In this document: positions 17,249-61,917 of the stretch, piece after piece
Numbering within the stretch: the stretch's first letter is position 1
Layout: the number at the start of each line of letters is the position of its first letter
Assembly: GCA_965202805.1 (NCBI GenBank)
Contig: OZ241869.1
Location: 1,984,001-2,048,000 of the forward strand
Length of the DNA: 64,000 nt
Direction: 5' to 3'
DNA from: Longimicrobiales bacterium
Lineage (GTDB): Bacteria > Gemmatimonadota > Gemmatimonadetes > Longimicrobiales > Gaopeijiaceae
Notes under the pieces: model-generated
What the model was told of the DNA's origin: nothing
Databases searched by the model: none
What the model saw: only the letters and a program-made list of their open reading frames with translations
Position numbers and translations under genes: made by a program

Positions 17249-17288
<40 letters not shown>

Positions 17289-17336
17289 TGTCTCCATGAT
17301 GGCGTGAATCCCGGCAGGAAATCGTCTAAGTTCAAT

Positions 17337-20121: not shown

Positions 20122-20642
20122 GTCATCACAGATCGCGGCTGCACCTTGTCGTTCGGCGACCCCAAAGCAGCGAAGGCCCAGCTTGGAATTAGCATCGGTC
20201 GATTCCAGGGATGAGGTCGCCGAACTCGCCGGACCTACCAATCCTGCGCTCAGATGAGGCCCTGCAGATGCGTGACGCAACCCTCGGCCTCGACGGTACC
20301 GCGTGGCGGCTGTGAGGCCGGCCCGTGGTAGTAAGTTCCGTAGTTGCCGGATCGCGACATCAGATGGCGGCAGGTTACGACTCTCAGGAAGACAGGATGG
20401 CCGGGTCGACCAAGAGGCTGATCGCTTAACGCGGAAGCATATTTTTCCGATCTTCCTCCGGTGTGCCCATCACTTGCGGGACGCTCGGCGCGATCGCGCC
20501 CACTTTCCCAAAGGCATCATTCCTCCCCCGAGTCAGCGGATCCCGGGACCGTGCCGTACATGCACATCAGACATCGGCGTGCAGGTGCGGGAACACCTTC
20601 GTAGCCGTTCCACCGCTACCGTCCGAACAATCAGGCCTGATT

Positions 20643-21611
20643 CTACTCCGTTTCCTCAGTCCCATCGCCCGCCGCAAAACACTCGTCCAGTCTGGCACAA
20701 ACAGCGCTGAGAGCTTCCCTGTGCCTCCCCAGGTCCCGACGACAGTTCGCCATCCATTCATCTGTAATCGTGAGCCGCTCCTGCCCCTTGAGTGATTCCA
20801 ACACGACGTTTCCGTTCTCGTCAACCTTCTCTTTGGCGTGCGCCAACACATTCCGCCTCCCCGTGACTTCCTCCTCATACCCACGAAGCTGGGTCAACTC
20901 CTGGGAAGGCTTCGGTTCAGCGCACTTCGCCACACGTTGAATAGCACGAAACTTGTGCACCGAGGAAAACAGCAAGCCGTCTCCGACAAGACCCACGACA
21001 TCTCCGGCGTCCACCCGTGCCGTCGCCGATTTCATGTTCCGCGACATTGCTTCCAGGACCCTCTTGCACGTCCTATCTGCCGCCGCCTGTACGCATTCCG
21101 CAGTCGCATTCGCGAACGCCCGCTTCAGCGTATCTTCCATTAGAACATCCATCTCGGCAACCTCGGCCATCGCAATCCCTCGCATGTGGTTGAGGTCTAC
21201 GGCTTTGCCTATGACCGTGTCCGCCAATGCCGTTAGAGCGTCGTCAAGGTTGGACCTCTCCTCGGCAAAAACTCCCGCCACCTCAGCGGCGGCCAGATGG
21301 GACAACAGGATCGGCACGGGCTGTGACGAATAAAATACCATATCCGTATATCGGAGGGTCGCGCGAATTCGACGCGCAATCTTTGCTCCGTCCGTACTCG
21401 CCTGTCCGAGGTTGTAATCGACCATCACGAGATCATAGTTCTTGCCTTCCTCTCCCCCGAGATCCACGCTGGACAGCTGCGTGACATCTTCCACAGTCGT
21501 CACCTGAAGTTCGAAGCCGACCGTGTCGAGGTGATCCCGCAAACTCTCAAGAGCTTGCTGAATATTATCCGGTTCGTCGTCCACTAAGAGAAGTCTGAAT
21601 GCAAGTTTCAT
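20643..21611 (-). CDS. Response-regulator receiver protein with helical C-terminal domain carrying a HEPN-like RxxxxH motif
   Basis: LLVDDE, DLVMVDYNL, FYSS; RNVLAH at 20838-20855; ATGA overlap with upstream kinase. Confidence 0.75.
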   Translation of the reverse strand: MKLAFRLLLVDDEPDNIQQALESLRDHLDTVGFELQVTTVEDVTQLSSVDLGGEEGKNYDLVMVDYNLGQASTDGAKIARRIRATLRYTDMVFYSSQPVPILLSHLAAAEVAGVFAEERSNLDDALTALADTVIGKAVDLNHMRGIAMAEVAEMDVLMEDTLKRAFANATAECVQAAADRTCKRVLEAMSRNMKSATARVDAGDVVGLVGDGLLFSSVHKFRAIQRVAKCAEPKPSQELTQLRGYEEEVTGRRNVLAHAKEKVDENGNVVLESLKGQERLTITDEWMANCRRDLGRHREALSAVCARLDECFAAGDGTEETE

Positions 21612-23953
21612 GTTGGTATACGCATGGTTAGTTGAGCACCTGACAACGCGGCGGAATATGAAGAGCGGGTAAGCGAAATGGCGCCTCCCATCCCTTCGAC
21701 AACTTGCTTCACATGATGAAGGCCTAGTCCGGATCCATCAGTCGTGGTCACGCCCTTCTCCAAGATCCTTCGAAGCGGATCGACCGAGGCAGGCCACCCC
21801 CCTCCGTCATCAGCGACGGTGATCGACAATGCTGCCTCCGCCCCCGTTGTAGCCTGTAAGCAAAAACTGATCTTGCGCGCCCCGGCCTTGGCCGCGTTCG
21901 ACACAAGGTTGTCCAATACAATGCCGATCTCAATTGGCCGAAATCGACGCTTAACCACTTGGTCATCACCGTGAACTTCGATGGCAATGCCATGGGGCGC
22001 CCACAAGGACGCTATCGTGCTGGCGTATTCTCGCACATAGCCTGTGAGGTCCATCGTTACAGCAGTGGCCTGCTTTCTGTAATCTTTCTTTGTGGCAAAT
22101 CTTGCCGCAGTCAGGATCTGGCTGTTGCGAAACGACATCCGTTCAAGAAAATCAACCCATGCCGACGTTGAAACTGTCTTGTCTTTCCGTAGAGCACGCA
22201 TCTTTCTCTTGATACCATGCTGGACGTCCGCGGCGTGCATAAGGATCTGATGGTGCAAGTTCAGAATAGTGTCCTGGTCGAAGGACGTTACGGCGGCCAG
22301 GAACCGGTTACGCTGCCGCTCTGCAGTGTATTTTTTCTCGGCGGCCTGTGCGGCCTCCTTGGCAGCTGCCGCCTGTGCCGCCGCTTCCTCGGCGGCGGCG
22401 GTTGCCTCGGCTTCGGATGCCCGCAACGCCTTGATGCGGGCCCTGGCATGTTTTACCTCTGCCAGAAGTGCTTCGTCACCCGTGCGTTCGGCGAGCGTCG
22501 TGAGCGTACTCAGCGAAGCGGCGAAAGCCTCCACTTTGTCGTCGATTATTCGAACGAGATCCCTGCTAAACTCAAGTACTTCGATGTTTGCAGTGGCAGC
22601 AAGCTGAGAAACCAGTTGTCCAACCCGTGCACTACTTGCGTCCCGCCGGATTCGGGAGATGTCAGCAACATCCTTATCGAGTTTGTCCTTCCAAGTGATG
22701 TCCACGACATACCGTTCCAATCGCTTGACACACTTGTCACGCACACATTCGACGAGATCCGCAACTTCGCGGGTTCGGATCAACCCTTGGTTGCGACTCG
22801 TGGCCTCCTCGAACCCCTCTTCACCGTGCACGGCGACGCGGCCGATGAGGTCACGACCCCCGAGAAAGCGCCGAACGCCCTGCTGCTTCCGTCGATTGAG
22901 TCCGAAGTAATCGTCGTCCTCCGCGCCGATGGGGAGGACACGAAAGCCGTTGCGGAAGAGAAAAATGGAACCGAACTGTACGCTCGGGACGCCCATGCGG
23001 CGGGCGAAGACGGTCTTGGCGCTGCGGTTAAGGTAGTATATTTCCGCCGTTAATCGTGATGCGCGTAGACTCTCATAGGGGTTGGGCTCGCGAATGTGAT
23101 AGATTAAGTGACCTCGATCTTCAAGAATGGAATCGAGGGTGTTGCCATCATCTTCGAGTGAGATGCGTATAACCGTAGTACGCCCGCGCAGGGCATCAAG
23201 GACTGGGTTAGTAACGATACCGTTTACTATCACACGAAGTGGGCGCGACGCTTTGCGAGCGCGGTTGTAGCGTGCGTCGTCGCGATCCTGCACCGCTTCG
23301 GCCGGCGCCTCGATCCGAATCTGGAAATCGGGAGAGTCACCGGAAAAGGGATTGATAAGCTTTGCGAGCTCCCGCTTGAGGCGCTGGAGCTTCTTCCGAT
23401 CCCAGCTAGTTCGAAGCTGCTTGATCACGAGTACGGTGCCGGTATCTTGAGGTGTGGTCGAGAGATGGGAGGGGAAGCCATCGATCTGCGACAGTTCGGC
23501 CTCGATGGTAACAAACTCTTGCTTCAGATCCTGTTCGTAGGCGGTCCAATCGATCGTGAGCACCTGTACCTCATGGCCTTCGGCTCGAGAATAGAGGATG
23601 AGCCGCTTGCCGAGACGATCACAAGAAAAACGACCGACGCCTTTTGCTCCAGCGTAGGTTCGTGGAGGTCGACGCAGCTTGTGGCGGTAGTCATCGTCCT
23701 CGGTGCCGTCCCTCTTTGCAGAATATGCGATGAAGAGCCACTTGTTTTGGATATCTGAGGGCGACATTCCTTTGCCATCGTCGGTGATGACGACGCTATC
23801 GCGGGAGAAAGAGAGAGTTACCGTCTGAGCGTGTGCGTCGAAGGAGTTCTTCACCAACTCAAAAATGGCAACAAAGTCATCCGTGATTAGATCTTTCCCG
23901 ATCAGATCCTTCAAGCCCGTGCTGATCCGAAATGGTTGGTAGGATGCCGGCAT
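21608..23953 (-). CDS. MORC/GHKL ATPase fused to a histidine kinase
   Basis: N-terminal ELVKNSFDA, DDGKGM, GAKGVGRFS; Ala-rich coiled coil; LHHQI; C-terminal LDNLVSNAAKA, DDGGG, GSGLGL. Confidence 0.85.
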   Translation of the reverse strand: MPASYQPFRISTGLKDLIGKDLITDDFVAIFELVKNSFDAHAQTVTLSFSRDSVVITDDGKGMSPSDIQNKWLFIAYSAKRDGTEDDDYRHKLRRPPRTYAGAKGVGRFSCDRLGKRLILYSRAEGHEVQVLTIDWTAYEQDLKQEFVTIEAELSQIDGFPSHLSTTPQDTGTVLVIKQLRTSWDRKKLQRLKRELAKLINPFSGDSPDFQIRIEAPAEAVQDRDDARYNRARKASRPLRVIVNGIVTNPVLDALRGRTTVIRISLEDDGNTLDSILEDRGHLIYHIREPNPYESLRASRLTAEIYYLNRSAKTVFARRMGVPSVQFGSIFLFRNGFRVLPIGAEDDDYFGLNRRKQQGVRRFLGGRDLIGRVAVHGEEGFEEATSRNQGLIRTREVADLVECVRDKCVKRLERYVVDITWKDKLDKDVADISRIRRDASSARVGQLVSQLAATANIEVLEFSRDLVRIIDDKVEAFAASLSTLTTLAERTGDEALLAEVKHARARIKALRASEAEATAAAEEAAAQAAAAKEAAQAAEKKYTAERQRNRFLAAVTSFDQDTILNLHHQILMHAADVQHGIKRKMRALRKDKTVSTSAWVDFLERMSFRNSQILTAARFATKKDYRKQATAVTMDLTGYVREYASTIASLWAPHGIAIEVHGDDQVVKRRFRPIEIGIVLDNLVSNAAKAGARKISFCLQATTGAEAALSITVADDGGGWPASVDPLRRILEKGVTTTDGSGLGLHHVKQVVEGMGGAISLTRSSYSAALSGAQLTMRIPT

Positions 23954-23954
23954 G

Positions 23955-25826
23955 TTATACTGACGGGGACGTGGTGCCCGTGACTGACGCACGATGACTA
24001 GAACGGTTGGGGAACGATAGAATCGTGGTCTCGGGACTACGGGTCCCGCGTGCGTGAGCCGGGATCGCTGCGTCGATCTTGGCGGCGCGGAAGGCAATGT
24101 CGATCTCGTCCAGTCGTGACCGTACTGTTCCCTTCACGTTCGGGGTATCATAGAACCCCCCGTCAGGCTCGAAACTGCAACTAGGGTCGTCTTCGAGGAG
24201 GAGCAGGAACTGCCTAATCCGTGCTGCAACCGCATGGGCAAACCGTGGAGGAACGGCGTTCGCCACTTGCGTATACTGCGGGACGTAGACTCCTGCACGC
24301 CTCCGCTCCGCCCCAGTAGTGCGCACACCCTTGAACTCAAACCAGTCGGGAAAGGTCTGGAGACGAGCAACCTCCCGAACGGTGGGAATCCTGTCCTCAG
24401 CGTGGTGGACGATGTCGTCCGGAAGAGAAGTGACCGTGAGCATCGGCCACTCGTCTGCGACAAGTACGCGTTGCGATTGTTTCCTGGTGACAAGCTCCGG
24501 AAACTGCTCGCTGAACTGGCGCCGAAGCCATCTGCTACTACACCGATGCTCCCGCGCCTCGGCCGAGCTCGTTGCAGCCGTCCTAAGCAGCTGGAGTTTC
24601 CGCACCACGTCTGGGCAATGCGAAGACGCTTCGTGGTTGAAGTACCGTTCTAGCGGAGCGTCGTCCGCCGAACCCAGGATTCCGCCGTCCAGATACTTCG
24701 ACTGCGGAGCCCGCACCTCGCGGAGGAACCCGCTCAGACCACGCGTGCCGTTTCGACGATACGCCCCAGTCCAGCTTTCTCCTGTCCCGTAGACCGGCGG
24801 TGCACTTGCTAGGTCACCAAGGATCTCCTTGGCGGTCAGAGAAGACCCCGCTGCAACCGCCGTTCCCTGGAGTCGACCATCGGTTGGTCGGCTGCGTGGA
24901 CAGGCGACCGGAAACAACAGTCGTGGCAACCTCTCGCATGCGGTCGGGTCAACGAGGTCTCGACGGACGCCAACGAGCAACAAGCGTCGGCGGGTCTGGG
25001 GGACTCCTAGCGGTTCTCCGTGAACGAGTTCTCCGTACACGTAGTACCCTGGGCGACTCTTGTCCCTGCGAGAGAGTGCCGCGCCGATCTCGCGAACCAG
25101 ATCGGCGTGCCGCTCCAACAGCCCTGGGACGTTCTCGATGATGGCAACGCGCGGTTGGACGGCACTGATGACTCGGATCGCTTCGTGGACGAGCAGGTTT
25201 CGCTCGTCGTCCGGGCACGCTTTGCCGGCGCACGAGAACCCCTGGCAAGGTGGCCCCGCCACGAGCAAGTCGATGCCGGTCGGGCGGCGTTCTAGCCACG
25301 TCCGAAGCCACCGGTCTGGAAGCGCCTCGCGAATGTCGCCACCACGCATGTGGCGGTCGAAGTCCTGGGGGAGCGATTCCCTGTCCTCAAGGATTTGCTC
25401 TCGCGCTTCCGCTCTGTACGCTGCGCGCGCGCTCCGCGACGGGTCACTAGGTCTTCCCGGAAGCACGCCTCCTGGCCTGTCGCCAACGATATTGTGGCGA
25501 TACGTCCACTCCGCGTCAGCTGAGTACTCGTTGGCGAGCACGACGTCGAAGCCGGCCCGGCGTAGTCCCAGCGCGAAGCCGCCAGCTCCCGAAAACAGGT
25601 CGACCGCAGTCAGCACTCGGTGACGAGGAGCGGCAGCGCGTCCTTTGGCCCCAAGGTCACCGCTGTTGCTCTCGGGAGCGGTCCTGTCTTGTCCTCCCGC
25701 TATCCCCACTCGCGTATCCCCTTGTCTGGTGAGAGGGATCGGTGCATCAAGTGACCCTCGCTGTCGAGTTGGCTCCTGAGCGGCCACGCCACCTGACCGT
25801 CCTTCGTCAAGACCACGTCGTGGCAA
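23955..25826 (-). CDS. dcm: C5 cytosine DNA methyltransferase (start uncertain)
   Basis: DLFSGAGG, GPPCQGFS, ENV, QTRRR, TVREVARLQTFPDWF, QVANAVPP. Confidence 0.93.
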   Translation of the reverse strand: MPRRGLDEGRSGGVAAQEPTRQRGSLDAPIPLTRQGDTRVGIAGGQDRTAPESNSGDLGAKGRAAAPRHRVLTAVDLFSGAGGFALGLRRAGFDVVLANEYSADAEWTYRHNIVGDRPGGVLPGRPSDPSRSARAAYRAEAREQILEDRESLPQDFDRHMRGGDIREALPDRWLRTWLERRPTGIDLLVAGPPCQGFSCAGKACPDDERNLLVHEAIRVISAVQPRVAIIENVPGLLERHADLVREIGAALSRRDKSRPGYYVYGELVHGEPLGVPQTRRRLLLVGVRRDLVDPTACERLPRLLFPVACPRSRPTDGRLQGTAVAAGSSLTAKEILGDLASAPPVYGTGESWTGAYRRNGTRGLSGFLREVRAPQSKYLDGGILGSADDAPLERYFNHEASSHCPDVVRKLQLLRTAATSSAEAREHRCSSRWLRRQFSEQFPELVTRKQSQRVLVADEWPMLTVTSLPDDIVHHAEDRIPTVREVARLQTFPDWFEFKGVRTTGAERRRAGVYVPQYTQVANAVPPRFAHAVAARIRQFLLLLEDDPSCSFEPDGGFYDTPNVKGTVRSRLDEIDIAFRAAKIDAAIPAHARGTRSPETTILSFPNRSSHRASVTGTTSPSV

Positions 25827-26186
25827 GTATGCCTCGAACCGGACCGCGCCGCCAGATCCGAGAGCGCCCTGGTCCGGTATGCGTCTCGCGCGACGTCACC
25901 GTCCTACTTCCCGGGTGACTCAATAACGCACATACCGAGTCGCGTGAACAGTGCCCAGCGAGAGCGCTGGTCCGGCATGGGATGTTAGCGATCGCCGTCA
26001 AGCCCGATTCGCTGCGCTCATGCCCTTGACGGCAACCCGAATGCGCATGCTGCACAGGCGAGAGCCCTGAATGCCCGGGCGACGAGTTCGCACGGGCATC
26101 CCAGATGGTAGAGCCTGGCGGGAGAGCGTCCAGACCTGGAGGCTGGTCCGATCCGTGGTTCCCGTTCTGGCGCTTCGCCCAGCTTC

Positions 26187-28523
26187 CTATGCCGCGCCGG
26201 GGTCTCCGAAGCTGTAGCCGACGCCGTGCCGGTTGAAGATGTACGTGGGCTTGGCGGCGTCCTCGCCGAGCTTCTTGCGGAGCTTCTTCATGACCGTGCG
26301 GACGCGGGCGGTCTTTTCGGATCCCCGGCGTCCCCAGACCTGGCGGAGGAGCGTCCGGTGGGTCACGACGCGTCCGGCGTTGTGCGAGAGGATGCGCAGC
26401 AGATCGAACTCGGTGCCGGTGAGGGGCACGTCGCGTCCGGCGAGGGTGACGAGCCGCGCGGCGTAGTCGATGCGCAGGTCGCCTAGGGCGAACGTCTCGG
26501 GCGCGCCGCGCCGCCAGAGCGCGGCCTGGACGCGGGCGACGAGTTCGGTCGGCGAGAACGGCTTGACGATGTAGTCGGCCGCGCCGCTGTCGAGTGCGCG
26601 GGCGATGGTCTCGTCGCGCCCGTATCCCGAGATGAAGATGACGGGGATTTCGGCGAGCGCGGGGACGCGCCCCATCAGCTCGATCCCGTCGACGCCCGGG
26701 AGCATCAGGTCGAGGAGCACGAGGCTGGGCCGTTCGGCACGGATGATGCCGGCGAGCCGGTCCGGATCGCTGGTGACGACCGGGGCGTAGCCCGCGTCGG
26801 CGAGGGCGTCGCGCACGTCGCGCAGCGTGTGCCAGTCGTCGTCGAGGACCACGATCCGCCGCTCCCCGCCCTTCGTGCCCGGCGGGAGCGGGAGGCCGCC
26901 GGGCGGCGCGGTCGCGGCCGCGGCCGCGGCATCCGCGGCCGCCGGGATCGTGAACGTGAAGCGAGCGCCGAGGCCCGGTCCCCCGCTCTCGGCGCGGATG
27001 CGGCCGCCGTGCGCCTCGACGAGCCCCTTCGAGATGGCGAGCCCGAGCCCGGTGTCGCCCGCGAACCCCGCGCGCTTGCGGAACAGATACGGGAGCCGGT
27101 CGGGCGCGATCCCCCGGCCCTGGTCCGAGACGGACAGGGCGATGTGGGTGCCCTCGGCCGCGCCCTCGACGCGGATCGGCGCCGAGTGCGGCGAGTGCCG
27201 GGCCGCGTTGGCGAGCAGGTTGTTCAGCACCTGCCCGATGCGCTGCGGATCGACCATCGCCTGCGGCAGGTCGGGCGGCAGGTCGACGACGACGGCGTGG
27301 CGGCCGCCGCCGGTGAGGAAGGTCTTGCGGGCGCTCTCGACGAGCGAGGCGACGTGCGTGGGTTCTGGCGCGACGGTCAGCGTGCCCGCCTCGATGCTGC
27401 CGGCGTCGAGCAGGTTCGCGATGAGGCTCCGCATGCGGTCGGCCTGATCGTCGATGATGCGGAAGATCTGGAGCAGCTCGGCCGGGTGCGGCGCGGGCGA
27501 TGCGCCAAGCGCGGTCGTCGTCGAGCCCTTGATCGAGATGAGCGGAGCGCGCAGCTCGTGGCTCACCATCTCCAGGAACTCCGCCCGCTGCCGCCCGAGT
27601 TCGTCGAGCGGCGCCAGGTCCTGGAAGCTGACCACGAACGACACCACCTCGCCGTCGTCCGAGCGGATGGGGGTGGCGTTGACGAGCGTGCGCACGCTCC
27701 GCCCGTCGGGGACCGAGAGTTCGATCTCCTCGGCGCGCACCTCCTCGGCGTCTTCGAGCCGCCGCGCCAGGGGAGACTCCGCGAGCGAGACTTCCCGCCC
27801 GTCCGCGTAGCGGCAGGTCATCACGTCGAGGAGCTGTTCGGCCGGACGGCCCGGAGTACGGATCTCCTCGACGATCCGCCGCGCCTCGCGGTTGACCGAG
27901 ACCGCGCGGCCCGTGGCCGCATCGATGACCACGACGCCGACCGGACAGGTCTCGACCAGGGTCTCAAGGTCGGCCCGCGCGCGCTCGACCGCGCGGTACG
28001 CGCGCGCGTTCGCGATCGCGGCGGCCGCCTGCGAGGCGAACAGCACGAGGATCTCCTCGTCCTCCGCCGTGAACGCCGCGCCGTCCTCCTTGTCGGCGAG
28101 AAAGAAGCCCCCGAACCGCTCTCCGCGGTGGCGCATCGGCGTCGCCTGGAGCGTCTTCGAGCCCCACGGGCCCGGAGAGCAGCCGAGCGAGCGCAGGTAC
28201 CCCGGGACGTCCGCCACGCGCAGCGGGCCCGGAAGGTCCCGCAGGTGCTCGAAGACCCGCAGCCCGTCGGGCCACTCGACCACCGCCCGGCGCTCCTCGG
28301 GCGAAAGACCGGAGGTGACGAAGTCCCGGACCTCGCCCCGCTCGCCGAACGTCGTGATCACCCCGACCCGGGCGCCGGTGAGTCCGCGCGCGCTCTCGAC
28401 CACGTCCTCGAGCACGGTGGGCGGGTCGAGGCTCTGGCTGATCCGCAGGATCGCCGCGCTCAGACGCGTGATGCGCTCATCGCGGGGGTCGTTTCCAGGC
28501 CCGGCCGGGTCTCGCTCGCTCAA
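26187..28523 (-). CDS. Hybrid sensor kinase GAF-PAS-HisKA-HATPase-REC-OmpR wHTH
   Basis: FTAEDEEILVLFASQAA; VSHELRAPL; NLLANA, DQGRG, GLGLAI; LLDLMLPG, DYIVKPF; LTGTEFDLL...LRKKL...YIFNRHGVGY. Confidence 0.92.
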   Translation of the reverse strand: MSERDPAGPGNDPRDERITRLSAAILRISQSLDPPTVLEDVVESARGLTGARVGVITTFGERGEVRDFVTSGLSPEERRAVVEWPDGLRVFEHLRDLPGPLRVADVPGYLRSLGCSPGPWGSKTLQATPMRHRGERFGGFFLADKEDGAAFTAEDEEILVLFASQAAAAIANARAYRAVERARADLETLVETCPVGVVVIDAATGRAVSVNREARRIVEEIRTPGRPAEQLLDVMTCRYADGREVSLAESPLARRLEDAEEVRAEEIELSVPDGRSVRTLVNATPIRSDDGEVVSFVVSFQDLAPLDELGRQRAEFLEMVSHELRAPLISIKGSTTTALGASPAPHPAELLQIFRIIDDQADRMRSLIANLLDAGSIEAGTLTVAPEPTHVASLVESARKTFLTGGGRHAVVVDLPPDLPQAMVDPQRIGQVLNNLLANAARHSPHSAPIRVEGAAEGTHIALSVSDQGRGIAPDRLPYLFRKRAGFAGDTGLGLAISKGLVEAHGGRIRAESGGPGLGARFTFTIPAAADAAAAAATAPPGGLPLPPGTKGGERRIVVLDDDWHTLRDVRDALADAGYAPVVTSDPDRLAGIIRAERPSLVLLDLMLPGVDGIELMGRVPALAEIPVIFISGYGRDETIARALDSGAADYIVKPFSPTELVARVQAALWRRGAPETFALGDLRIDYAARLVTLAGRDVPLTGTEFDLLRILSHNAGRVVTHRTLLRQVWGRRGSEKTARVRTVMKKLRKKLGEDAAKPTYIFNRHGVGYSFGDPGAA

Positions 28524-28609
28524 CTGTCCACTCCCCGGAGAAGGTGGGGCGGAGGGGCATGGGAACCCCGCCGCGGAAGTGGACTGAAGATAGCGGCTTG
28601 CCAGGCGGG

Positions 28610-28668
28610 AGTCACGAGGTGGTCCCGCGCATTTCTCAGGAAGTCACGAACGAGTCACGACTCGTTCG
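28610..28668. promoter_or_regulatory. AGTCACGA direct repeats (28610, 28642, 28653) plus inverted repeat CGAACGAGTC-ac-GACTCGTTCG; candidate OmpR/PhoB-type box
   Basis: 11-bp periodic tandem upstream of a wHTH-containing kinase. Confidence 0.5.
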
Positions 28669-28680
28669 GTAGATTGCAGA

Positions 28681-28714
28681 GTAGCTCTCGATTATTGCAT
28701 TAATCGAGAGCTAC
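28681..28714 (-). repeat. lox-like recombination site 1 (13-8-13)
   Basis: GTAGCTCTCGATT-ATTGCATT-AATCGAGAGCTAC. Confidence 0.92.
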
Positions 28715-28723
28715 GGAGTGTGA

Positions 28724-28752
28724 AAGTTGTGACCCCGGGCTCAGGGCGTCAA
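28724..28752 (-). promoter_or_regulatory. Candidate outward-facing sigma70 promoter inside the invertible segment
   Basis: Minus strand TTGACG-17 bp-CAACTT ending 9 bp before site 1. Confidence 0.45.
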
Positions 28753-28773
28753 CCTCGGTCGTGATCCGGCCCG

Positions 28774-29751
28774 TCACGCGCGTCTCTGGAGCCGCGCGAG
28801 CTGCGCCGCTCCGTTGCGCTGCGGCAGCAGGCGTTCGCCGTAGCGCTGGACCATCGAGGCGCTCCTCCAGCGGCCGGCCTGCATGATGGCCGGGACTCCG
28901 ATCCCCGAGGCGATCATGTCCTGCGCCGCCCCCACGCGGGGGCTGTGCCCGGCGATCCGGCCGACCTCGTCAGCGGAAAGCCCCGCGCGTTCGGCCATCG
29001 CCTTGTAGATGCGCGGCACCTGGCTCTCGGGCAGCGCGCCCCCGAGCGTGCCGTTCCTGCGGACCGAACGGAACAGCGGCCCGGCGCCGATCCCGCCCGC
29101 GTCGAGCCAGTCCCGCACCAGCCTGACGGTGTCGCGGTGCAGGTACAGCATCGCGCCGGCGCCCTCGGGATCGGTCTTCGCGCGGCGCACCAGGAGCGAG
29201 GCCGATCCGCACCTATCCGTATACAGGTCATTGACTTGGAGCGCCACCAGCTCGGACCGGCGAAGCATGGCGTCGTAGGCCACGGCGAGCAACGCGCGGT
29301 TGCGCGCGTCGATCGTGCGCTCGCCCGCGGCGTCGATCAGGCGCCGCCGCAGCGTCCAGGTCAGGCCCAGCGCCTGCGCCGGGCGGCACGCGTGCCGGCG
29401 GCAGACCCGCTTGAGCGCGCGCCGCACCGCCGCGCGCTCGGCGGGGCTCGGCTCCCCGGCCGAGCGGTGCGCGCTGGCGATGCTCGACAGGTAGCGCCGC
29501 ACGGTGCCCGGCGTTCGGCCGGCCGCCGCCGCCTCCTCGATGTAGGCGGCCACGGTGGCGGCGCGCGCGGGCAGCGGCCGGACTCCGCGCTCGGCGCACC
29601 ATGCCGCAAACCGGGCGAGATCCGACCTGAGCCCGCGCACGGTGTGGACGCTGAGGATGCCCTCGGCGGAGTCGAGGCAGGCATCGAATTGTGACCATTT
29701 CGGATCGGGCGCCGGACGCGCGGACACGGGGTCCGAGCCCCGAATCGGCAT
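28774..29751 (-). CDS. Cre-like tyrosine recombinase
   Basis: LRRSE (R), RAKTD (K), GHSPRVGAAQDM (HxxR), IMQAGRW (W), MVQRY (Y), closely paralleling Cre GHSARVGAARDM...IMQAGGW...Y; GGGAGG RBS. Confidence 0.92.
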   Translation of the reverse strand: MPIRGSDPVSARPAPDPKWSQFDACLDSAEGILSVHTVRGLRSDLARFAAWCAERGVRPLPARAATVAAYIEEAAAAGRTPGTVRRYLSSIASAHRSAGEPSPAERAAVRRALKRVCRRHACRPAQALGLTWTLRRRLIDAAGERTIDARNRALLAVAYDAMLRRSELVALQVNDLYTDRCGSASLLVRRAKTDPEGAGAMLYLHRDTVRLVRDWLDAGGIGAGPLFRSVRRNGTLGGALPESQVPRIYKAMAERAGLSADEVGRIAGHSPRVGAAQDMIASGIGVPAIMQAGRWRSASMVQRYGERLLPQRNGAAQLARLQRRA

Positions 29752-29786
29752 AAGTGCCTCCCTTGCAAGGATATAGGCCAAAAAAA

Positions 29787-29820
29787 GTAGCTCTCGATTA
29801 ATGCAATAATCGAGAGCTAC
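29787..29820 (+). repeat. lox-like recombination site 2, exact reverse complement of site 1
   Basis: GTAGCTCTCGATT-AATGCAAT-AATCGAGAGCTAC. Confidence 0.92.
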
Positions 29821-30109
29821 TTAACGGTAAGGAGGAGTCCCCATGGCCTCTTTGACGCTACGAGCCCTGACACGGATCGCGCGGGCGCGCCCGCACCCTC
29901 TCCTCCCTCCTCCTTCCCGCCCTCGCGCTCCTGCTCGGGGAGCTGTCGCTCTTCCCGGGCACCTCCCCGCCAGCCCGCCCCACGCGAAACGGTCCCTGAG
30001 CGACCGGATCCCGCGTCTCGGTCCGCCCAGGTCGTTCAGGACTTCCGTCCCCGTTTCCCGTGCGGCATCCGCCCGAACCCATGACTTAGTGAAACAGGAG
30101 GTTCACACG

Positions 30110-33100
30110 ATGCAGATCAGGTGCCGCCGGCCTGACAGGCGCTCCCGCGCCCGCCCCTCCCTTCTTCCCGTCCTCTCGCTGCTGCTCGGCGCGCTCGGCC
30201 TGTTCGCCCCCGCGCCCGCGGAGGCGCAGACCGTCACACTGGTGACCAACTTCGGGCAGACCAAGCTCACAGGGACCCGGTTCACCGGCGACAATTCGTT
30301 AGCCCAGGGCTTCACGACGGGGAGCAATTCCGCGGGTTACACGCTGGCGAGCATCGAGGCGATATCGCGCGGAGGCGGGACCGCCGTCCAGGCCGCGACC
30401 GTCCGGGCGGAGCTGTGGTCGGCCACCACGGGTGGAGCGCCGGACTCCAAGATAGCGGATCTGACAATCCCGACGGGTGCGGTGGCGGCAAACGCCACGA
30501 TGTCCTTCGGAGCGCCCGCAAGCACCACGTTGACGGCGAGCACGACCTATTACTTCGTTATTTATACGGTCGGTGCGTTCAACTTGGCTCTGGAAGGTAC
30601 GAGCGCCCACGCCGAGGACAGTGGCGGTCAATCCGGCTGGACGATCGCGGACGCGATACGCTTTCAAGCACGTAGCGATACGCCAAGTGGAGCGAGTTGG
30701 GCCACCGATAGTCAGGGTGCCATCGCCCTGATACGCGTGAAGGGCGCGGCCCAGCAGAACACCACCGACGCCAACCTTTCCGCCCTGACGGCGTCGAGCC
30801 ACACGAGTGCGACGGGGACGTTCACGGCGCTGACGCTGTCGCCGGCCTTCGCGGCGGACACGACGAGCTACAGGGCGCAGGTGTTGAACGCGAGGACGCA
30901 CCTGAAGCTCACCCCGACGGTGAACAATTCGAGCGCCACGGTGAAGGTGGGCAAGCAGGGGACCACGCTGGCCACGGTCACCAGCGGCTCGGCGAGCGCC
31001 GCCATCGCGCTCTCGGTGGGCTCGAACGCGATCACGGTCGAGGTCACCGCCGCGGACGGCACCACGAAGAAGACCTACACCGTGACGGTGAGGCGGCTCG
31101 CCTCCGGCCAGGTCTGGGCGGCGAGGTTCACGCCGGCGACGATTACTGTCGGTACGGGGGGATTCGGCTGCTTAAACAAGGACCAATGCGATGCGCAGCT
31201 GACCGACAACGGCTTTACGGTCGGTGGCACGGACTATCATTTCACAGCCCTTTTTGACGCCAACCTGGGTACAGGTGTCACCACCCCTCTGCAATTTAGG
31301 CTAAACGCTGCCCCAAACTCTGCACTTCAGGCGCTCAAGCTCTGCATAGGGACAAACGAATATACGATTGGGATAAGCTTTAGTCAGACCTTCACCACCG
31401 ACCCCGGCCTCTCCACCACCCCGGTCTCCGTCAGCATCGGCACGTCCTGCGCGCAGCAGACGCAGACGCAGTCCACCGACGCGACCCTGTCGGGCCTGGC
31501 GGCGACGACCAGCACGAGCGCGTCGGGCGCGTTCACGTCGCTGAACATCGGCACGTTCTCCTCGGGCACCACGTCGTACACGGCGTCGGTGGCCAATTCC
31601 ATCACCCACGTGAAGCTGACCCCGACGGTGGCGCACTCGGCGGCGACGGTCACGGTGGCGGGCACTGGGGTCACCAGCGGCACGGCCAGCGGCGCCATCG
31701 CCCTCACCGTGGGGAGCAACGCGCTGTCGGTGGTCGTGACGGCCGAGGACGGCACCACGACGCGGACCTACACCGTGACCATCACGCGGGCGGCGGCGCA
31801 GTCGTCGAACGCGAACCTGAGCGCTCTGACGGCCACCACCTCCACGAGTTCCACGGGGACGTTCACGGCGCTGACGCTGACGCCCTCGCCGTTCTCGGCG
31901 GCGACGACGAGCTACACGGCGACGGTGGCGAACGCGAGGACGCACGCGAAGGTGACGCCGACGGTGGCGCACAGCTCGGCGACGGTGACGGTGAGCGGGA
32001 CGGCGGTGACGAGCGGCACGGCGAGCGGTGCGATCGCGCTGAGCGTGGGGTCCAACGCGATCACGGTGCGGGTGACGGCCCAGGACGGGACGACGACGAA
32101 GGACTACACCGTGACCATCACGCGGCAGGCGGCGGCGTCGTCGAACGCGAACCTGAGCGGGCTCGCGGCCACCACCTCCACGAGTTCCACGGGGACGTTC
32201 ACGGCGCTGAACATCGGCACGTTCGCCTCGGGCACCACGAGCTACACGGCGACGGTGGCGAACGCGAGGACGCACGCGAAGGTGACGCCGACGGTGGCGC
32301 ACGGCTCGGCGACGGTGACGGTGAACGGGACGGCGGTGACGAGCGGCTCGGCGAGCGCCGCGATCGCGCTCACCGTGGGGTCCAACGCGATCACGGTGCG
32401 GGTGACGGCCCAGGACGGGACGACGACGAAGGACTACACCGTGACCATCACGCGGCAGGCGCCGGACGCGCCGCCTGCGGTGTCGCTGTCGGCGTCGCCG
32501 AACCCGGTGGGCGAGGGCTCGGACGTGACGGTGACGGCGACGCTCTCGAAGGCGCTGTCGGCGGCAGTGACGATCCCGCTGACGCTGACGGCGGGCACGG
32601 CGGAGGCGGGGGATTACGGCGCGCTGGCGTCGATCACGGTTGCGTCGGGCGCGACCAGCGGCACGGGCACGATCACGACGAGCCAGGACACGGACGACGA
32701 ACACGAGACGTTCACGGTGGCGCTCGGGAGCCTGCCGTCGTCGGTGACCGCGGGCACCCCGACCTCGGTCGAGGTGAGGATTACGGACTCCGGCGCGGTG
32801 GACGCGACGCTGACGGCGAGCCCGCTTCGCCCGGCGGAGGGCCGGACGGCGACGCTGATAGCGCGGCTTTCGCAGCCTGCGCCGGCGGGCGGGATCACGC
32901 TGCACTTCTGGACGACCGGCGGCACGGCGTCGCGGGGCGGCGACTTCACGCTCGAGCCGGCGCCGCCCGGCAACTTCGTCGACCGGACGGCGGACATCGT
33001 GATCGCCGAGGGTAACCGCACCGCGCAGGGGCGGGTCGTGATCGTCGCCGACGACGAGGACGAGGAGGACGAGACGATCATCATGACGGTGGTCGGTCCC

Positions 33101-35899
33101 TGGGGCTCGGCGCCGGAGATCACGCTGACGATTCCGGCGAACGCCCCCTCCGGGCCGCCGCTGACGCTGTCGGCGAGCACGCGGCGACCGCGGGAGGGCT
33201 CGCAGGTGACGTTGACGGCGGTCCTGAGGGACCCGGCGCCGGCGGGCGGGGTGACGGTGACGTTCTTCGCCGAGGGGGTGGGCGACAGCCCCGCGACCGC
33301 GGAGCTGGACTACACGCTCGATCCGCCGCATCCGTCGGGCGCGGCGACCGTTACGGCGGACATCGTGATCCCCGAGGGTTCGCGGGGGACCAGGGCGACC
33401 CTGAGCGTGCTGGAGGACGGCGAGCCCGAGGGCGACGAGTTGATCGAGATCGGGGTGGCCACCACCCCGTCGACGTACACGTCTCCCGTCGACACGCTGA
33501 CGATCCCGGGCAACGACACCTACGCGCCGGAGGTCTGGCTCGGGGCGTCTCCGAACCCCGTCGGCGAGGGCGACACGGTGACCGTGACGGCGTTCCTGTC
33601 GGGGGCGCTCGATGCCGCGGTGACGGTCCCGGTGCGGACGGTGCGGGGCACGTCGGAGTCGGGCGACCACGGCACGCTGTCGAGCATACGGATCGCGGCG
33701 GGCGAGACGGCCGGCGATGGCCGGATCGCGACGCGCCAGGACTCCGACGGGGACGACGAGACGTTCTCGGTGGTGTTGCGCGCCCTGCCGGCGTCGTTGC
33801 GGGCGGGCGACCCGGACTCGGTCGAGGTGACGATCGAGGACGACGACGAGGGGCCCCCGGCGGTCCGGCTCGAAGCGTATCCGAACCCGGTCGCGGAGGG
33901 CGACACGGTGACGGTCGAGGCGCGGCTGTCGGTGGGGCTCGACGGCGCGGTGACGATCCCGGTGCGGACGGTGCGGGGCACGTCGGAGTCGGGCGACCAC
34001 GGCACGCTGTCGAGCATACGGATCGCGGCGGGACAGATCGTCGGCGAGGGCCGGATCTGGACGGCGCGGGACTCGGACTCGGACGCGGAGACCTTCACGG
34101 TCGGGCTGGGCAGCCTGCCCTCGTCGGTCTCGGCGGGCAGCCCGGACGAGGTCGAGATCACGATCTCCGACGACGCCGCGCCCTCGGTGTGGCTGGAGGC
34201 GTATCCGAACCCGGTCGCGGAGGGCGACACGGTGACGGTCGAGGCGTTCCTGACGGAGACGTTCGATCGCGCGGTGACGATCCCGGTGCGGACGGCGCGG
34301 GGCTCGTCGGAGTCGGGCGACCACGGCACGCTGTCCGGGATCCGGATCGCGGCGGGCGAGGCGTCCGGGGAGGGCCGGATCTGGACGGCCGCGGATGTGG
34401 ACGGCGACGACGAGACGTTCACGGTGCGGCTGGGCGGCAACCTGCCGTCGCCGCTGCACGCGGGCAGCCCGGACGAGGTCGAGATCACGATCGCCGACAA
34501 CGGCGGCGGCACCGCGCCGGGCGCCCCGGGGAACCTGCGGGTGACGGCGGGCGACGAGCGGCTCGACCTGACCTGGACGGCGCCCTCGTCGGGGTCGGCC
34601 ACGGACTACACCGTCGAGTACAAGGAGCGCACCGCGTCCGACTGGACGGGGCTCTCCGAGCCCGACTACACGGACACCGAGGCGGCGATCGAGGGCCTCG
34701 TGAACGGCACGCGCTACGACGTGCGCGTGCAGGCCTGGAACGAGCACGGGCCGGGCGCGTGGGCGACCGGCTCGGGCACGCCCACGGGCGGCGGGGGCTC
34801 GAACGCCTCGAACGCGAACCTGCGCGCCCTGACGGTGAGGGTGAGCGAGGGCGAGAACGGCACCTACCGCTCGCTCGCGCTCGTCCCGTCGTTCCGGCAG
34901 TCGGTGACGACGTACGCCACGGCCACGGCGCCGGCCGCGACCACGCACATGAAGCTGACGCCGACGGCGGTCAACGCGAAAGCGCTGATCCTCATTGAAG
35001 GCCACGAGGTGGCCAGCGGCTCGGCGAGCCCGGCCATCGCGGTCGGCCACGGCTGGACGTTCTGGGTCACCGTCATCTCCGAGGACCAGAGCGCGTCCAA
35101 GGAGTACTCGGTCGAGGTGCGGATCGCGCAGGCCTCGGGGGACGCGGCGGGCAGCTTCACGGCGGGTCTGGACGCCGCGCTCGCCGTCGTCGGGCGCCTG
35201 AGCCCGGAGGACGCGGCGGGCGCGCTGCTCGGCGAGCGGAGCCTCGCGGACGAGCGGCTCGAAGCGCTCGACCGGCTCGGCAACGCCAACGGCCGCTACG
35301 ACGTGGGCGACCTCCTGTCGTGGATCGAGCGATGCAAGAGCGGAGGGGCGAGGTGCGGGCCGCCGCCGCAGACGCCACCGCCCGCTTCGGACGCGGCGCT
35401 GCCCGGAGCCGTCGGAGCGGCTGCCACGAAACGGCCGCGGCGGCGCGGGCCGGGAGGAAGGGTGCGCAGGCGGACGCGACCGCGGCGAAGGCTGCGCGGG
35501 CTCGCGGTGCTGCTCGCCGCGGCGCTCTGGTCGTGCGACGGCGGAGGCGTCGTGGACCTGCCCGCGAACGCCGACGTTCCCGTGCCGGGAACCCTCGCCG
35601 TCGAGTGGACGGCCGCGGCGGGAGGCGCGGCGGCGGCGGGCGCGCTCGTCGAGATCGACGGGCCGGACGTGGGTGACGCGCGGACGCCGGGCGGGCTCGA
35701 ACTGTACGCGGCCGGGCAGGCCAACGGGCCGAGGCGGTTCGTGATCGCGGGCGACATGCCGAACGGTCCCGTGTTGGAGTTCGAGGTGCCCGACAGGAGA
35801 CAGGCCGGACTCTACACCGTCCGCGTCGTCGAGGTCGCCGGGGAGGACCACCGGCTGCTGGACACGGACCGGTACCGGGCGGGGATCGCGTCGAACTGA
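30110..35899 (+). CDS. Giant secreted repetitive surface protein/adhesin (5 cadherin-like beta-sandwich repeats, Calx-beta-like repeats, FN3); in-frame upstream start also at 29843
   Basis: AGGAGG RBS and signal peptide ending PAEAQ; (D/N)A(N/T)LS.L...VTAxDG.T.K.YTVT repeats; PNPV.EG..VTV...D.DDETF repeats; APGNL.V......LTW...Y.V.Y...Y.VRVQA.N FN3. Confidence 0.88.
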   Translation: MQIRCRRPDRRSRARPSLLPVLSLLLGALGLFAPAPAEAQTVTLVTNFGQTKLTGTRFTGDNSLAQGFTTGSNSAGYTLASIEAISRGGGTAVQAATVRAELWSATTGGAPDSKIADLTIPTGAVAANATMSFGAPASTTLTASTTYYFVIYTVGAFNLALEGTSAHAEDSGGQSGWTIADAIRFQARSDTPSGASWATDSQGAIALIRVKGAAQQNTTDANLSALTASSHTSATGTFTALTLSPAFAADTTSYRAQVLNARTHLKLTPTVNNSSATVKVGKQGTTLATVTSGSASAAIALSVGSNAITVEVTAADGTTKKTYTVTVRRLASGQVWAARFTPATITVGTGGFGCLNKDQCDAQLTDNGFTVGGTDYHFTALFDANLGTGVTTPLQFRLNAAPNSALQALKLCIGTNEYTIGISFSQTFTTDPGLSTTPVSVSIGTSCAQQTQTQSTDATLSGLAATTSTSASGAFTSLNIGTFSSGTTSYTASVANSITHVKLTPTVAHSAATVTVAGTGVTSGTASGAIALTVGSNALSVVVTAEDGTTTRTYTVTITRAAAQSSNANLSALTATTSTSSTGTFTALTLTPSPFSAATTSYTATVANARTHAKVTPTVAHSSATVTVSGTAVTSGTASGAIALSVGSNAITVRVTAQDGTTTKDYTVTITRQAAASSNANLSGLAATTSTSSTGTFTALNIGTFASGTTSYTATVANARTHAKVTPTVAHGSATVTVNGTAVTSGSASAAIALTVGSNAITVRVTAQDGTTTKDYTVTITRQAPDAPPAVSLSASPNPVGEGSDVTVTATLSKALSAAVTIPLTLTAGTAEAGDYGALASITVASGATSGTGTITTSQDTDDEHETFTVALGSLPSSVTAGTPTSVEVRITDSGAVDATLTASPLRPAEGRTATLIARLSQPAPAGGITLHFWTTGGTASRGGDFTLEPAPPGNFVDRTADIVIAEGNRTAQGRVVIVADDEDEEDETIIMTVVGPWGSAPEITLTIPANAPSGPPLTLSASTRRPREGSQVTLTAVLRDPAPAGGVTVTFFAEGVGDSPATAELDYTLDPPHPSGAATVTADIVIPEGSRGTRATLSVLEDGEPEGDELIEIGVATTPSTYTSPVDTLTIPGNDTYAPEVWLGASPNPVGEGDTVTVTAFLSGALDAAVTVPVRTVRGTSESGDHGTLSSIRIAAGETAGDGRIATRQDSDGDDETFSVVLRALPASLRAGDPDSVEVTIEDDDEGPPAVRLEAYPNPVAEGDTVTVEARLSVGLDGAVTIPVRTVRGTSESGDHGTLSSIRIAAGQIVGEGRIWTARDSDSDAETFTVGLGSLPSSVSAGSPDEVEITISDDAAPSVWLEAYPNPVAEGDTVTVEAFLTETFDRAVTIPVRTARGSSESGDHGTLSGIRIAAGEASGEGRIWTAADVDGDDETFTVRLGGNLPSPLHAGSPDEVEITIADNGGGTAPGAPGNLRVTAGDERLDLTWTAPSSGSATDYTVEYKERTASDWTGLSEPDYTDTEAAIEGLVNGTRYDVRVQAWNEHGPGAWATGSGTPTGGGGSNASNANLRALTVRVSEGENGTYRSLALVPSFRQSVTTYATATAPAATTHMKLTPTAVNAKALILIEGHEVASGSASPAIAVGHGWTFWVTVISEDQSASKEYSVEVRIAQASGDAAGSFTAGLDAALAVVGRLSPEDAAGALLGERSLADERLEALDRLGNANGRYDVGDLLSWIERCKSGGARCGPPPQTPPPASDAALPGAVGAAATKRPRRRGPGGRVRRRTRPRRRLRGLAVLLAAALWSCDGGGVVDLPANADVPVPGTLAVEWTAAAGGAAAAGALVEIDGPDVGDARTPGGLELYAAGQANGPRRFVIAGDMPNGPVLEFEVPDRRQAGLYTVRVVEVAGEDHRLLDTDRYRAGIASN

Positions 35900-36421: not shown

Positions 36422-36445
36422 ACACTTAGGAGATCTCCTAAGTGT
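36422..36445. promoter_or_regulatory. Perfect 24-bp palindrome abutting a TTGACT -35, upstream of the transfer operon
   Basis: ACACTTAGGAGATCTCCTAAGTGT. Confidence 0.65.
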
Positions 36446-36507
36446 TGACTTCCCCCAAAAGGTCCTTTCACCGTTACGGGCCTGAACGCGGCTGGAACGG
36501 CAGTCGA

Positions 36508-37041
36508 ATGGCGACGCTGGAGGAGCAATTCAACACACGAATCGGCGGGTTTCTCGACGACACGGGCATGGCGCCGACGACGCTCGGCATGCTGGCGGTG
36601 GGCGACCCGAATCTGATGCGCCAGATCGAGCGGGGCCGCTCGTTGACGCTCAGGACGGCGGACCGGGTGGTCGCGTTCATCGACGACTACGAGCGGGTCG
36701 CGGGCGGCGCCGAGGCTCCGCCCGCCCGACCGCGCAGACGGAGGCCCGCCATGTGGGCGAGGCGGGAGAGCAAGATGCAGCGGAGCGGAGCGATGACGAA
36801 CGAACGCAGCAACGAGCGGACGAACCCGGCGACCCGTCTCCTGCGGATCTCGGAAGTGCAGGCCCGGACGGGCCTGGGGCGGAGCACGATTTACCGGTGG
36901 GCGGCCGAGGGCCGCTTCCCGCGGCCGGTCCGGCTGGGCGGGCGCGTCGCGCGCTGGGTCGAGGCCGAGGTGGACGAGTGGCTCCGGAAATGGCTGGAGA
37001 GGCGCCGGGGCGTCGAGGTCCCGGCGGCGGCACGCAACTGA
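36508..37041 (+). CDS. HTH regulator fused to an AlpA domain
   Basis: N-terminal GMAPTTLGMLAVGDPNLMRQIERGRSLTLRTADRV; C-terminal LLRISEVQARTGLGRSTIYRW...FPRPVRLGGR. Confidence 0.75.
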   Translation: MATLEEQFNTRIGGFLDDTGMAPTTLGMLAVGDPNLMRQIERGRSLTLRTADRVVAFIDDYERVAGGAEAPPARPRRRRPAMWARRESKMQRSGAMTNERSNERTNPATRLLRISEVQARTGLGRSTIYRWAAEGRFPRPVRLGGRVARWVEAEVDEWLRKWLERRRGVEVPAAARN

Positions 37042-44877: not shown

Positions 44878-45216
44878 ATGGCTAGACGCCGCCCGGTCAT
44901 CGTCGCCGTCCGCCTCACGCCGGACGAGTCCGCCGACTGGCGGACCAAGGCGGCGGCCGCGGGCGTGCCGCTCTCGGCGCTGATCCGCCGTGCGATGGCT
45001 CGCACGCGGACGTGGACGGCCCCTGCGGCCGAGGTCGAGCGCGAGCGCAACCGGCAGGTCTCCCGCATTGGGAACAACCTCAACCAGATCGCCCGGTGGG
45101 CGAATACCCACAAGGGCGCGGCCGAGGCCGTCGAGATCGTCGCCCGCCTGGTCGCCATCGAGCGGGCGCTGCTCGCCGTGGCCCGCATCGACGAGGACGG
45201 CGGCGATGCACATTAA
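44878..45216 (+). CDS. mobC: Relaxosome accessory protein MobC/MbeC
   Basis: RHH VAVRLTPDE...LSALIR; RIGNNLNQIARWAN. Confidence 0.9.
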   Translation: MARRRPVIVAVRLTPDESADWRTKAAAAGVPLSALIRRAMARTRTWTAPAAEVERERNRQVSRIGNNLNQIARWANTHKGAAEAVEIVARLVAIERALLAVARIDEDGGDAH

Positions 45217-49919: not shown

Positions 49920-50101
49920 GCGACCTCCTCTCGGCACCGGGGCATCTGATCGAAGGGGTGTTCCCGGATCTCTTTCTGCCGCCGTGGCAGGGGGTTGGTC
50001 ATCGCGAGAGTAGTCCTCTTGGAGGGATGAGAGGAACGGCCGGTGCGCCTGAAAGGTAACGGTCTTGTCAACCTCGGGGACCACTGCCGCAGGAAACGGC
50101 T

Positions 50102-61843: not shown

Positions 61844-61917
<74 letters not shown>

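Follow-up and report, generated by a model that had tools for sequence, protein, structure and literature searches.

A Cre-type recombinase gene enclosed by inverted lox-like sites in a Longimicrobiales bacterium: a probable self-contained inversion cassette with a proposed switch output

Background

Can a bacterial recombinase of the Cre type invert the very segment of DNA that encodes it, and could such an inversion act as a switch on the neighbouring genes? This question is raised by a locus of Longimicrobiales bacterium (GenBank assembly GCA_965202805.1) in which the gene for a Cre-type tyrosine recombinase is enclosed by two inverted lox-like sites, between a gene encoding a hybrid sensor kinase and a gene encoding a giant surface protein. 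We analysed a stretch of 64,000 nucleotides (contig OZ241869.1, positions 1,984,001 to 2,048,000), hereafter the window, in whose own numbering all positions are given. A preliminary description of the window, drawn from its letters alone, had proposed that this cassette of ~1.1 kb flips itself. The account that we favour, with moderate confidence, is that of a self-contained inversion cassette run by a Cre-type tyrosine recombinase, with a proposed switch output.

Results and discussion

Sites and recombinase

Each of the two sites is 34 bp long; site 1 reads GTAGCTCTCGATT-ATTGCATT-AATCGAGAGCTAC and site 2 is its exact reverse complement (Table 1). The preliminary description had recognised this inverted pair, which stands, but had divided the sites into 13-bp arms and an 8-bp spacer: the symmetry extends one base further on each side and the true plan is 14-6-14. 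The asymmetric cores, TTGCAT (28695-28700) in site 1 and ATGCAA (29801-29806) in site 2, are mutual reverse complements, as had been stated for the spacers, and depart from a perfect palindrome at their first and last bases only. Allowing up to two mismatches, the 14-base arm was found four times in the window, exactly at the four site arms (0.10 occurrences expected; none of 100 shuffles reached four). Over the whole genome, a single contig of 4,020,862 bases, the 34-bp pattern with up to three mismatches occurred twice, both times at the cassette sites, and its backwards-read control gave no match. No target-site duplication was seen around the sites (flanks ...gcaga/site and site/ttaac...), and an Rfam scan of the window gave no match in or near the cassette, the sole hit being a tRNA at 61844.

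The recombinase showed the Pfam domains Phage_integrase (4.3e-16) and Phage_int_SAM_1 (3.6e-6) only, with no serine recombinase (resolvase) domain among its Pfam matches. Compared with solved structures, it matched Cre chains over residues 29-314 (E 2.5e-31) and XerD at 6.3e-4, and the NCBIfam models of XerC/XerD scored ~41 bits, far under their cut-offs of 330-335. Identity to P1 Cre is 30.2 %. Residues R164, E167, K192, H269, R272, W295 and Y304 align with Cre R173, E176, K201, H289, R292, W315 and Y324, respectively, and all seven are invariant among 12 relatives; the full Cre catalytic set announced for this protein was therefore recovered. An AlphaFold2 model built on a 12-row alignment reached a mean pLDDT of only 52.4, with the catalytic domain below 50. 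The enzyme is of the Cre type and the sites have the lox layout.

Table 1 Coordinates of the cassette, its neighbours and other features of the window
Feature	Position	Strand	Basis or remark
Hybrid sensor kinase/response regulator, OmpR-type DNA-binding end, 778 aa	26187-28523	-	conserved with the cassette as one module
Kinase upstream region: GTGACT three times (28658-53, 28647-42, 28615-10), the last 17 nt from TATCTT (28592-87)	28587-28658	-	candidate kinase promoter, 8/12
Lox-like site 1, kinase side: 14-bp arm, 6-bp core TTGCAT, 14-bp arm	28681-28714		counterpart site kept in relatives
Candidate outward promoter, 3' end of cassette: TTGACG (28752-28747), 17 nt, CAACTT (28729-28724)	28724-28752	-	7/12
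Cre-type tyrosine recombinase gene, 325 aa, GGAGG 5 nt ahead of ATG	28774-29751	-	Pfam, Cre alignment
Candidate recombinase promoter: TCGAGA (in inner arm of site 2), 18 nt, TATCCT	29768-29797	-	8/12
Lox-like site 2, adhesin side: core ATGCAA; minus-strand hairpin, then T7	29787-29820		terminator-like call on the minus strand
Conserved block just beyond site 2, with AAGGAGG (29829-35) and ATG 29843	29821-29900	+	resembles a gene start; rejected as that of the adhesin
Giant surface protein, 1929 aa from ATG 30110	30110-35899	+	domain matches
AlpA-like regulator gene	36442-37041
Relaxase	44990-46771
Type I restriction-modification genes	46922-50540
Second integrase, P4-type, beside the type I restriction-modification genes	50102-51319
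Island integrase, beside the tRNA-Ile gene	60621-61793

Both orientations among related loci

A scan of one genome per species gave 272 recombinase relatives. The best 79 of these 272 loci, together with the window and three further ones, make up the 83 loci examined. Loci were oriented by the recombinase gene and assigned to state A when the kinase gene lies downstream on the same strand, as in the window, or to state B when it lies upstream and divergent. State A was found in 44 loci and state B in three (L059, L060 and L075), and 36 had no kinase start in range.

The flanks of near-identical loci locate the rearrangement. The upstream flank of L060 corresponds to the downstream flank of L066 reversed (96.6 %) and the other flank likewise (88.4 %), the two cassettes align in the same direction at 92 %, and all three alignments meet inside the sites. 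L059 and L092 show the same opposite-orientation pattern, with flanks at 97-98.6 %, and L075 agrees with L059 at 99.8 %. A further case comes from the window's own subclade: in L116, a metagenome contig whose recombinase is 89 % identical to that of the window, each flank matches the plus strand of the window collinearly (28654-28711 and 29790-29886), and the cassette that they enclose is reversed. By these comparisons, a flipped cassette is present in no fewer than three separate lineages, the joints always falling within the sites, and inversion of the cassette in nature is strongly supported. The self-inversion proposed for the cassette is thus supported, the check suggested with it, whether homologues occur in both orientations, having had a positive outcome, and we consider it very likely that a real, recombinase-driven inversion takes place at these sites.

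All 24 sequencing runs consisted of 31-mer contigs; the 31-mer graph is identical for either orientation and hence uninformative on flipping. The X1 and X2 run contigs end at 28709 and 29816 and restart at 28685 and 29792, i.e. inside the repeats. The constant core polarity relative to the gene was discarded as evidence against flipping, as a pair of the form S...rc(S) is unchanged by reverse complementation. The state B copy at L059 carries, exactly at the recombinase start, an IS256-family element of ~1.43 kb with a 9-bp duplication (2504-3992 of the locus, CBDEGT010000001.1); this insertion may have frozen the copy as a natural 'locked' switch.

Distribution and conserved architecture of the family

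Strong recombinase homologues (57-93 % identity) were present in six of the 18 other genomes sampled from the same genus, often in two or three copies. By record title, the best 79 loci fall into Longimicrobiales/Candidatus Palauibacter/Gemmatimonadota (56), Acidobacteriota groups (8), Latescibacterota (2) and Gammaproteobacteria or Proteobacteria groups with sponge-related names (13); these phylum names come from the depositors and may partly reflect binning errors; among the non-Gemmatimonadota records, however, several are complete chromosomes. Multiple copies of the family occur in sponge- and coral-associated metagenome-assembled genomes (MAGs) labelled as four phyla, with up to six copies per contig.

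The preliminary description had suggested checking homologues for paired sites: in 56 of the 83 loci the gene has a site to either side, and the two 6-bp cores are exact reverse complements. Two more loci have both sites with a single core mismatch, which brings the 34-bp plan to 58 of 83. The family holds 16 core variants, and the arms vary too; since the different cores stay paired, both sites of a locus co-vary. Metagenome contigs gave paired inverted sites in 12 of 18 loci at 55 % identity or more and in none of the 29 loci examined at 50 % or less, although in four of these 29 a lone site of this type lies upstream. Plasmids of Methylobacterium and Lichenicola carry the closest plasmid homologues (44-45 % identity), likewise without paired sites. 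Because pairs are missing from these distant loci and plasmids, the paired inverted arrangement is, on present comparisons, best taken as a derived trait of one clade. The difference from phage systems, expressed by the low identity to P1 Cre, also makes the new recombinase/target pair suggested earlier a fair expectation, or more exactly a series of such pairs with 16 different cores.

The window and its closest relatives align without a break from the kinase stop through the cassette to ~66-80 nt past site 2. Comparison of the six copies present in one genome placed the start of homology, in most pairs, precisely at the upstream site's outer edge, and its end at the stop codon of the kinase gene; cassettes of 96.7 % identity have unrelated outer flanks there, and three copies have the same core, CTGTAG. 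Given these homology boundaries, the repeated module is site-recombinase-site-kinase, with the DNA beyond the upstream site apparently reassorted at that site. The module is horizontally spread and lies next to variable giant surface-protein genes. When 74 upstream frames were scanned, 28 gave matches of surface type: choice-of-anchor R in 19, long-protein or Ca2+-stabilised adhesin repeats in five, leucine-rich repeats in two and Calx-like domains in two. A few others are unrelated genes or insertion sequences and the rest have no family match. One clade, at ~57-61 % identity, is without the kinase and has retained the giant gene.

Some loci differ from this common architecture. L104 and L106 (OZ241969.1, gammaproteobacterial) have a reversed core pair, with CTACAT upstream in both and, in L104, ATGTAG downstream, an order that inversion cannot produce from the usual arrangement; in L104, the next gene downstream on the same strand is of the lipoprotein type. 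The surroundings of other related loci are rich in mobile elements (L049:1267-2376, L063:7093-8118, L055:5652-6275, L111:422-1531 and L066:1821-3170), including a reverse transcriptase, an ArdC-like antirestriction/metallopeptidase and transposases of Mutator, IS1182/IS5 and IS1595 types.

Flanking genes

The kinase, to the left of site 1, has the domain order GAF-PAS-HisKA-HATPase-REC-Trans_reg_C. To the right of site 2, the giant protein carries, besides a choice-of-anchor R domain, cadherin-like, glucodextranase-B, fn3 and Calx-beta repeats. These divergent neighbours, a hybrid kinase and a giant adhesin, are those named in the preliminary description, but the adhesin ATG that it placed 22 bp after site 2 did not hold. 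That codon (ATG 29843) was ruled out as the adhesin start, as its reading frame spans only 37, 87 or 110 codons in three of five close relatives and stays open in two. The probable start of the adhesin is ATG 30110, preceded at 8 nt by AGGAGG and followed by a signal-peptide-like N-terminus ending in Ala-Glu-Ala (judged by eye). The element around ATG 29843 is itself conserved: AAGGAGG followed 7-9 nt later by a start codon (ATG/GTG) is kept in five of five close relatives, and ~80 nt outside site 2 are conserved in all four aligned loci, the remainder of the 290-nt leader not being so.

The kinase family is large, with five full-length copies in the same genome, up to ten matches in a relative, and identities of 56-70 %. 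Only one of the five copies in the genome is linked to a recombinase. Kinase copies without a recombinase had neither lox-like sites nor adjoining giant genes, and no clean empty site was found among them.

Candidate transcription signals

The promoters of the genome's tRNA genes, read by eye, follow TTGACA-N17-TAnnnT, in which the -35 element is strong and the -10 element weak. A standard promoter scan of 28400-30300 returned no promoter-like site. A relaxed scan over 28500-30150 gave three best candidates, all on the minus strand (Table 1); from site 2 to the adhesin start, the plus strand yielded none.

The candidate outward promoter lies just past the recombinase stop, with a predicted start ~3 nt before site 1; it faces the kinase in the present orientation and would face the adhesin once flipped. 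It is kept in five of five members of the window's subclade (as TTGACA in L116). Across the family, a match of at least 8/12 at this position was found in 18 of 64 loci, against 1/64 on the other strand, 2/576 windows inside the gene and 2/58 at the other cassette end. For the recombinase gene, relatives share a motif T(A/G)TCnTTG between the upstream site and the ATG, and the candidate -35 falls within the inner arm, such that a site-bound recombinase would cover its own -35 and shut off its own gene. Site 2 with its run of seven T scores as a terminator on the minus strand. Runs of at least four T follow the inner side of the upstream site in 14 of 58 loci, versus 0, 2 and 3 of 58 in the other three directions, and this combination resembles a terminator for transcription entering the cassette.

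The GTGACT repeats upstream of the kinase gene (28610-28658) are direct, with 11-bp spacing, and GTGAG, GTGAC or GTGGC stand in their place in relatives. An inverted copy of the motif, GGTCACAA, is found inside the cassette, 14-16 nt from the downstream site, which is thus flanked by the motif on both sides. Such a repeat pattern is that expected for binding by an OmpR/PhoB-type domain, putatively the kinase C-terminus, and a connection between kinase and switch by way of this motif is conceivable.

Proposed mechanism

By analogy with Cre, two recombinase molecules would bind both 14-bp arms of each site, the two sites would pair, and cleavage and strand exchange would take place at either edge of the asymmetric 6-bp core. 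Since the two cores are mutual reverse complements, the product would be an inversion of the ~1.1-kb segment holding the recombinase gene itself. The only way out of the cassette for transcription would be the site behind the recombinase gene; this outgoing transcription would comprise the recombinase transcript and that from the candidate promoter TTGACG-N17-CAACTT. In state A it would enter the hybrid kinase gene, which has a candidate promoter of its own; in state B it would enter the leader of the giant surface-protein gene, which has no recognisable promoter. The cassette would then be an ON/OFF phase switch for the surface protein, OFF being the common state. This switch output is plausible. 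The promoter candidates are weak, and we judge the chances that the cassette works as a surface-protein switch to be close to even, leaning slightly against.

Genomic setting

The kinase-recombinase-adhesin module is cargo of an integrative conjugative island of ~44.6 kb (17249-61885) located at a tRNA-Ile gene. The island ends are 42-bp direct repeats of the 5' half of this gene (17249-17290 and 61844-61885, one mismatch), and its type IV secretion genes are VirB4/B6/B8/B9/B10/B11/D4-like; the integrases, relaxase, AlpA-like gene and restriction-modification genes of Table 1 also belong to it. The Cre-like gene, which lies at least 9 kb inside the island, was ruled out as the island integrase, as a separate integrase is found at the tRNA-Ile end with the 42-bp repeats. 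The island offers a vehicle for the spread of the module between phyla. Positions 20400-26000 of the window are lower in G+C (54-62 % vs ~72 % around). Two minus-strand genes in this stretch encode a C-5 cytosine methylase (23955-25826) and, at 21608-24097, a protein of 829 aa in which two GHKL ATPase domains were recognised; the stretch probably represents an island-borne unit of restriction or defence.

Alternative explanations

Several observations weigh against the account that we favour. As regards the inversion, L075 is a one-sided and weak witness, since it is located at the end of a contig and its locus is not continued at the other end of that record. L059 and L075 probably represent a single lineage, and the L116 contig derives from short reads. 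Both orientations were seen between loci and not in one population, the 31-mer contigs breaking inside the 34-bp repeats, and the 44:3 ratio of orientations implies that flipping is rare, biased or selected against. One site only was found in 13 of the 83 loci, and none within the range searched in 12, all such counts being drawn from related, multi-copy loci and hence not independent. As regards the output, the outward candidate of the window scores 7/12 only and was missed by the standard scan, and the largest subclade (~70 % identity) is without an outward promoter match.

Inversion could be without effect on the neighbours, the cassette being self-maintaining or neutral, or the sites could mainly serve exchange between copies, re-pairing kinase-recombinase modules with surface genes. 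The six-copy genome fits such exchange, with its homology bounded by the upstream-site outer edge and the kinase stop, its nearly identical cassettes beside unrelated outer flanks, which look like the outcome of between-locus recombination at the site, and its core common to three copies; the weakness of the promoter evidence is also in keeping with this explanation. Yet the cassette repeatedly lies ahead of the 5' ends of giant surface genes in distant lineages, including kinase-less ones, and local, in-place inversion is directly seen between loci (L060/L066, L059/L092 and L116). We hold this alternative to be unlikely. The other explanations take the inverted pair for something else than an inversion system. 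Multimer resolution, integration or excision of the conjugative island, or of a plasmid ancestor, may be what the recombinase and its sites are for, the inverted pair then being incidental: the module does sit among type IV secretion genes and a relaxase, the closest plasmid homologues are single recombinase genes on large plasmids, and distant homologues (50 % identity or less) have one upstream site at most. A role of this kind is very unlikely, since the island has its own integrase and direct end repeats, resolution and excision require direct repeats while the inverted arrangement is kept in 56 of 83 loci, and the natural rearrangement observed is an inversion.

The patchy occurrence of the cassette within the genus, its multiple copies, its spread over phyla and the homology boundary at the outer edge of the upstream site would also suit a small transposon-like element with the 34-bp inverted repeats as its terminal repeats. 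This is more improbable still: the sites are not flanked by a target-site duplication, the repeated unit continues beyond the downstream site through the whole kinase gene, each 'end' consists of two palindromic arms around a core, as crossover sites of tyrosine recombinases typically do, recombinase-less kinase paralogues carry no sites, and in L116 the flanks stay collinear while the interior flips. Finally, the palindromes could be operators or terminators only, for instance in recombinase autorepression, without recombination. The terminator score of site 2, the bias in T-runs and the position of the candidate -35 in the inner arm agree with such roles, which are compatible with recombination; taken alone, they leave unexplained the second site, the core complementarity over 16 variants and the inverted states with joints in the sites, and we give this explanation hardly any credit. 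The self-contained inversion cassette remains the account that we retain.

Comparison with known systems

The locus resembles Cre/loxP of P1 and the other Cre-type pairs, namely Dre, Vika, Nigri, Panto and those collected in PMC10250229, in its enzyme family and in having a 34-bp inverted-arm site with an asymmetric core less than 100 bp from the gene. The described Cre-type systems have one site near the gene, for circularisation or resolution, whereas here two inverted sites enclose it. Unlike them, the cassette has 14-bp arms and a 6-bp core, is chromosomal or island-borne, occurs in multiple copies and adjoins surface-protein genes.

The arrangement itself has counterparts elsewhere. The Hin/hix H-segment of Salmonella holds a serine recombinase gene inside its own invertible segment, requires an enhancer and Fis, and in one orientation reads out from an internal promoter into a surface-structure gene. 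Both systems place the recombinase in the segment, but the enzyme of the cassette is a tyrosine recombinase and its outward promoter only a candidate. Flp/FRT of the yeast 2-micron plasmid is a tyrosine recombinase that flips its own segment between two inverted sites; the plasmid is eukaryotic, the sites lie within 599-bp repeats and the purpose is copy-number amplification. The plan of a gene between inverted sites is thus the same, while host and purpose differ, gene switching being the one proposed for the cassette. FimB/FimE-fimS of E. coli, the invertible promoters of Bacteroides and RecV of Clostridioides difficile share short inverted repeats, a tyrosine recombinase and phase-variable surface structures. 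In these invertons the recombinase is encoded away from the DNA that inverts and often acts on several switches, and their short repeats are not lox-like, whereas every copy of the present family carries its own Cre-type enzyme inside the segment. Enzyme and site are Cre/lox-like and the arrangement Hin- or Flp-like, with the enzyme class or the host differing from each.

No description of this arrangement was found in the literature; a systematic search for Cre-type enzymes looked for single palindromes within 1 kb of the gene, and its ~500 predicted recombinase/site pairs might include relatives (PMC10250229).

Conclusions

A self-flipping chromosomal family would give Cre-type enzymes a natural invertase role, beyond one-site resolution in phages and plasmids. 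For genome engineering, the natural enzyme/site variants, with differing arms, 16 cores and recombinases 54-93 % identical, are raw material for orthogonal systems. The module is found across MAGs labelled as four phyla and is located on a conjugative island, which speaks of gene flow within host-associated communities. The family precedes giant adhesin-like or leucine-rich-repeat proteins, a 'eukaryote-like' surface class thought to mediate host contact; if the switch is true, it would mean phase variation in sponge and coral symbionts that are not yet culturable.

A bolder version, which we advance tentatively and regard as rather doubtful, is that of a self-flipping Cre/lox family moved by conjugative islands among unrelated sponge symbionts, in which giant host-contact proteins would be phase-variable, the diversified cores (16) and arms would prevent cross-reaction of up to six copies, and the co-inherited hybrid sensor kinase, ending in an OmpR-type DNA-binding domain, would couple flipping or its output to an environmental signal. 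If true, this would provide a ready-made series of mutually orthogonal recombinase/site pairs and would be the first programmed DNA inversion described in sponge microbiomes.

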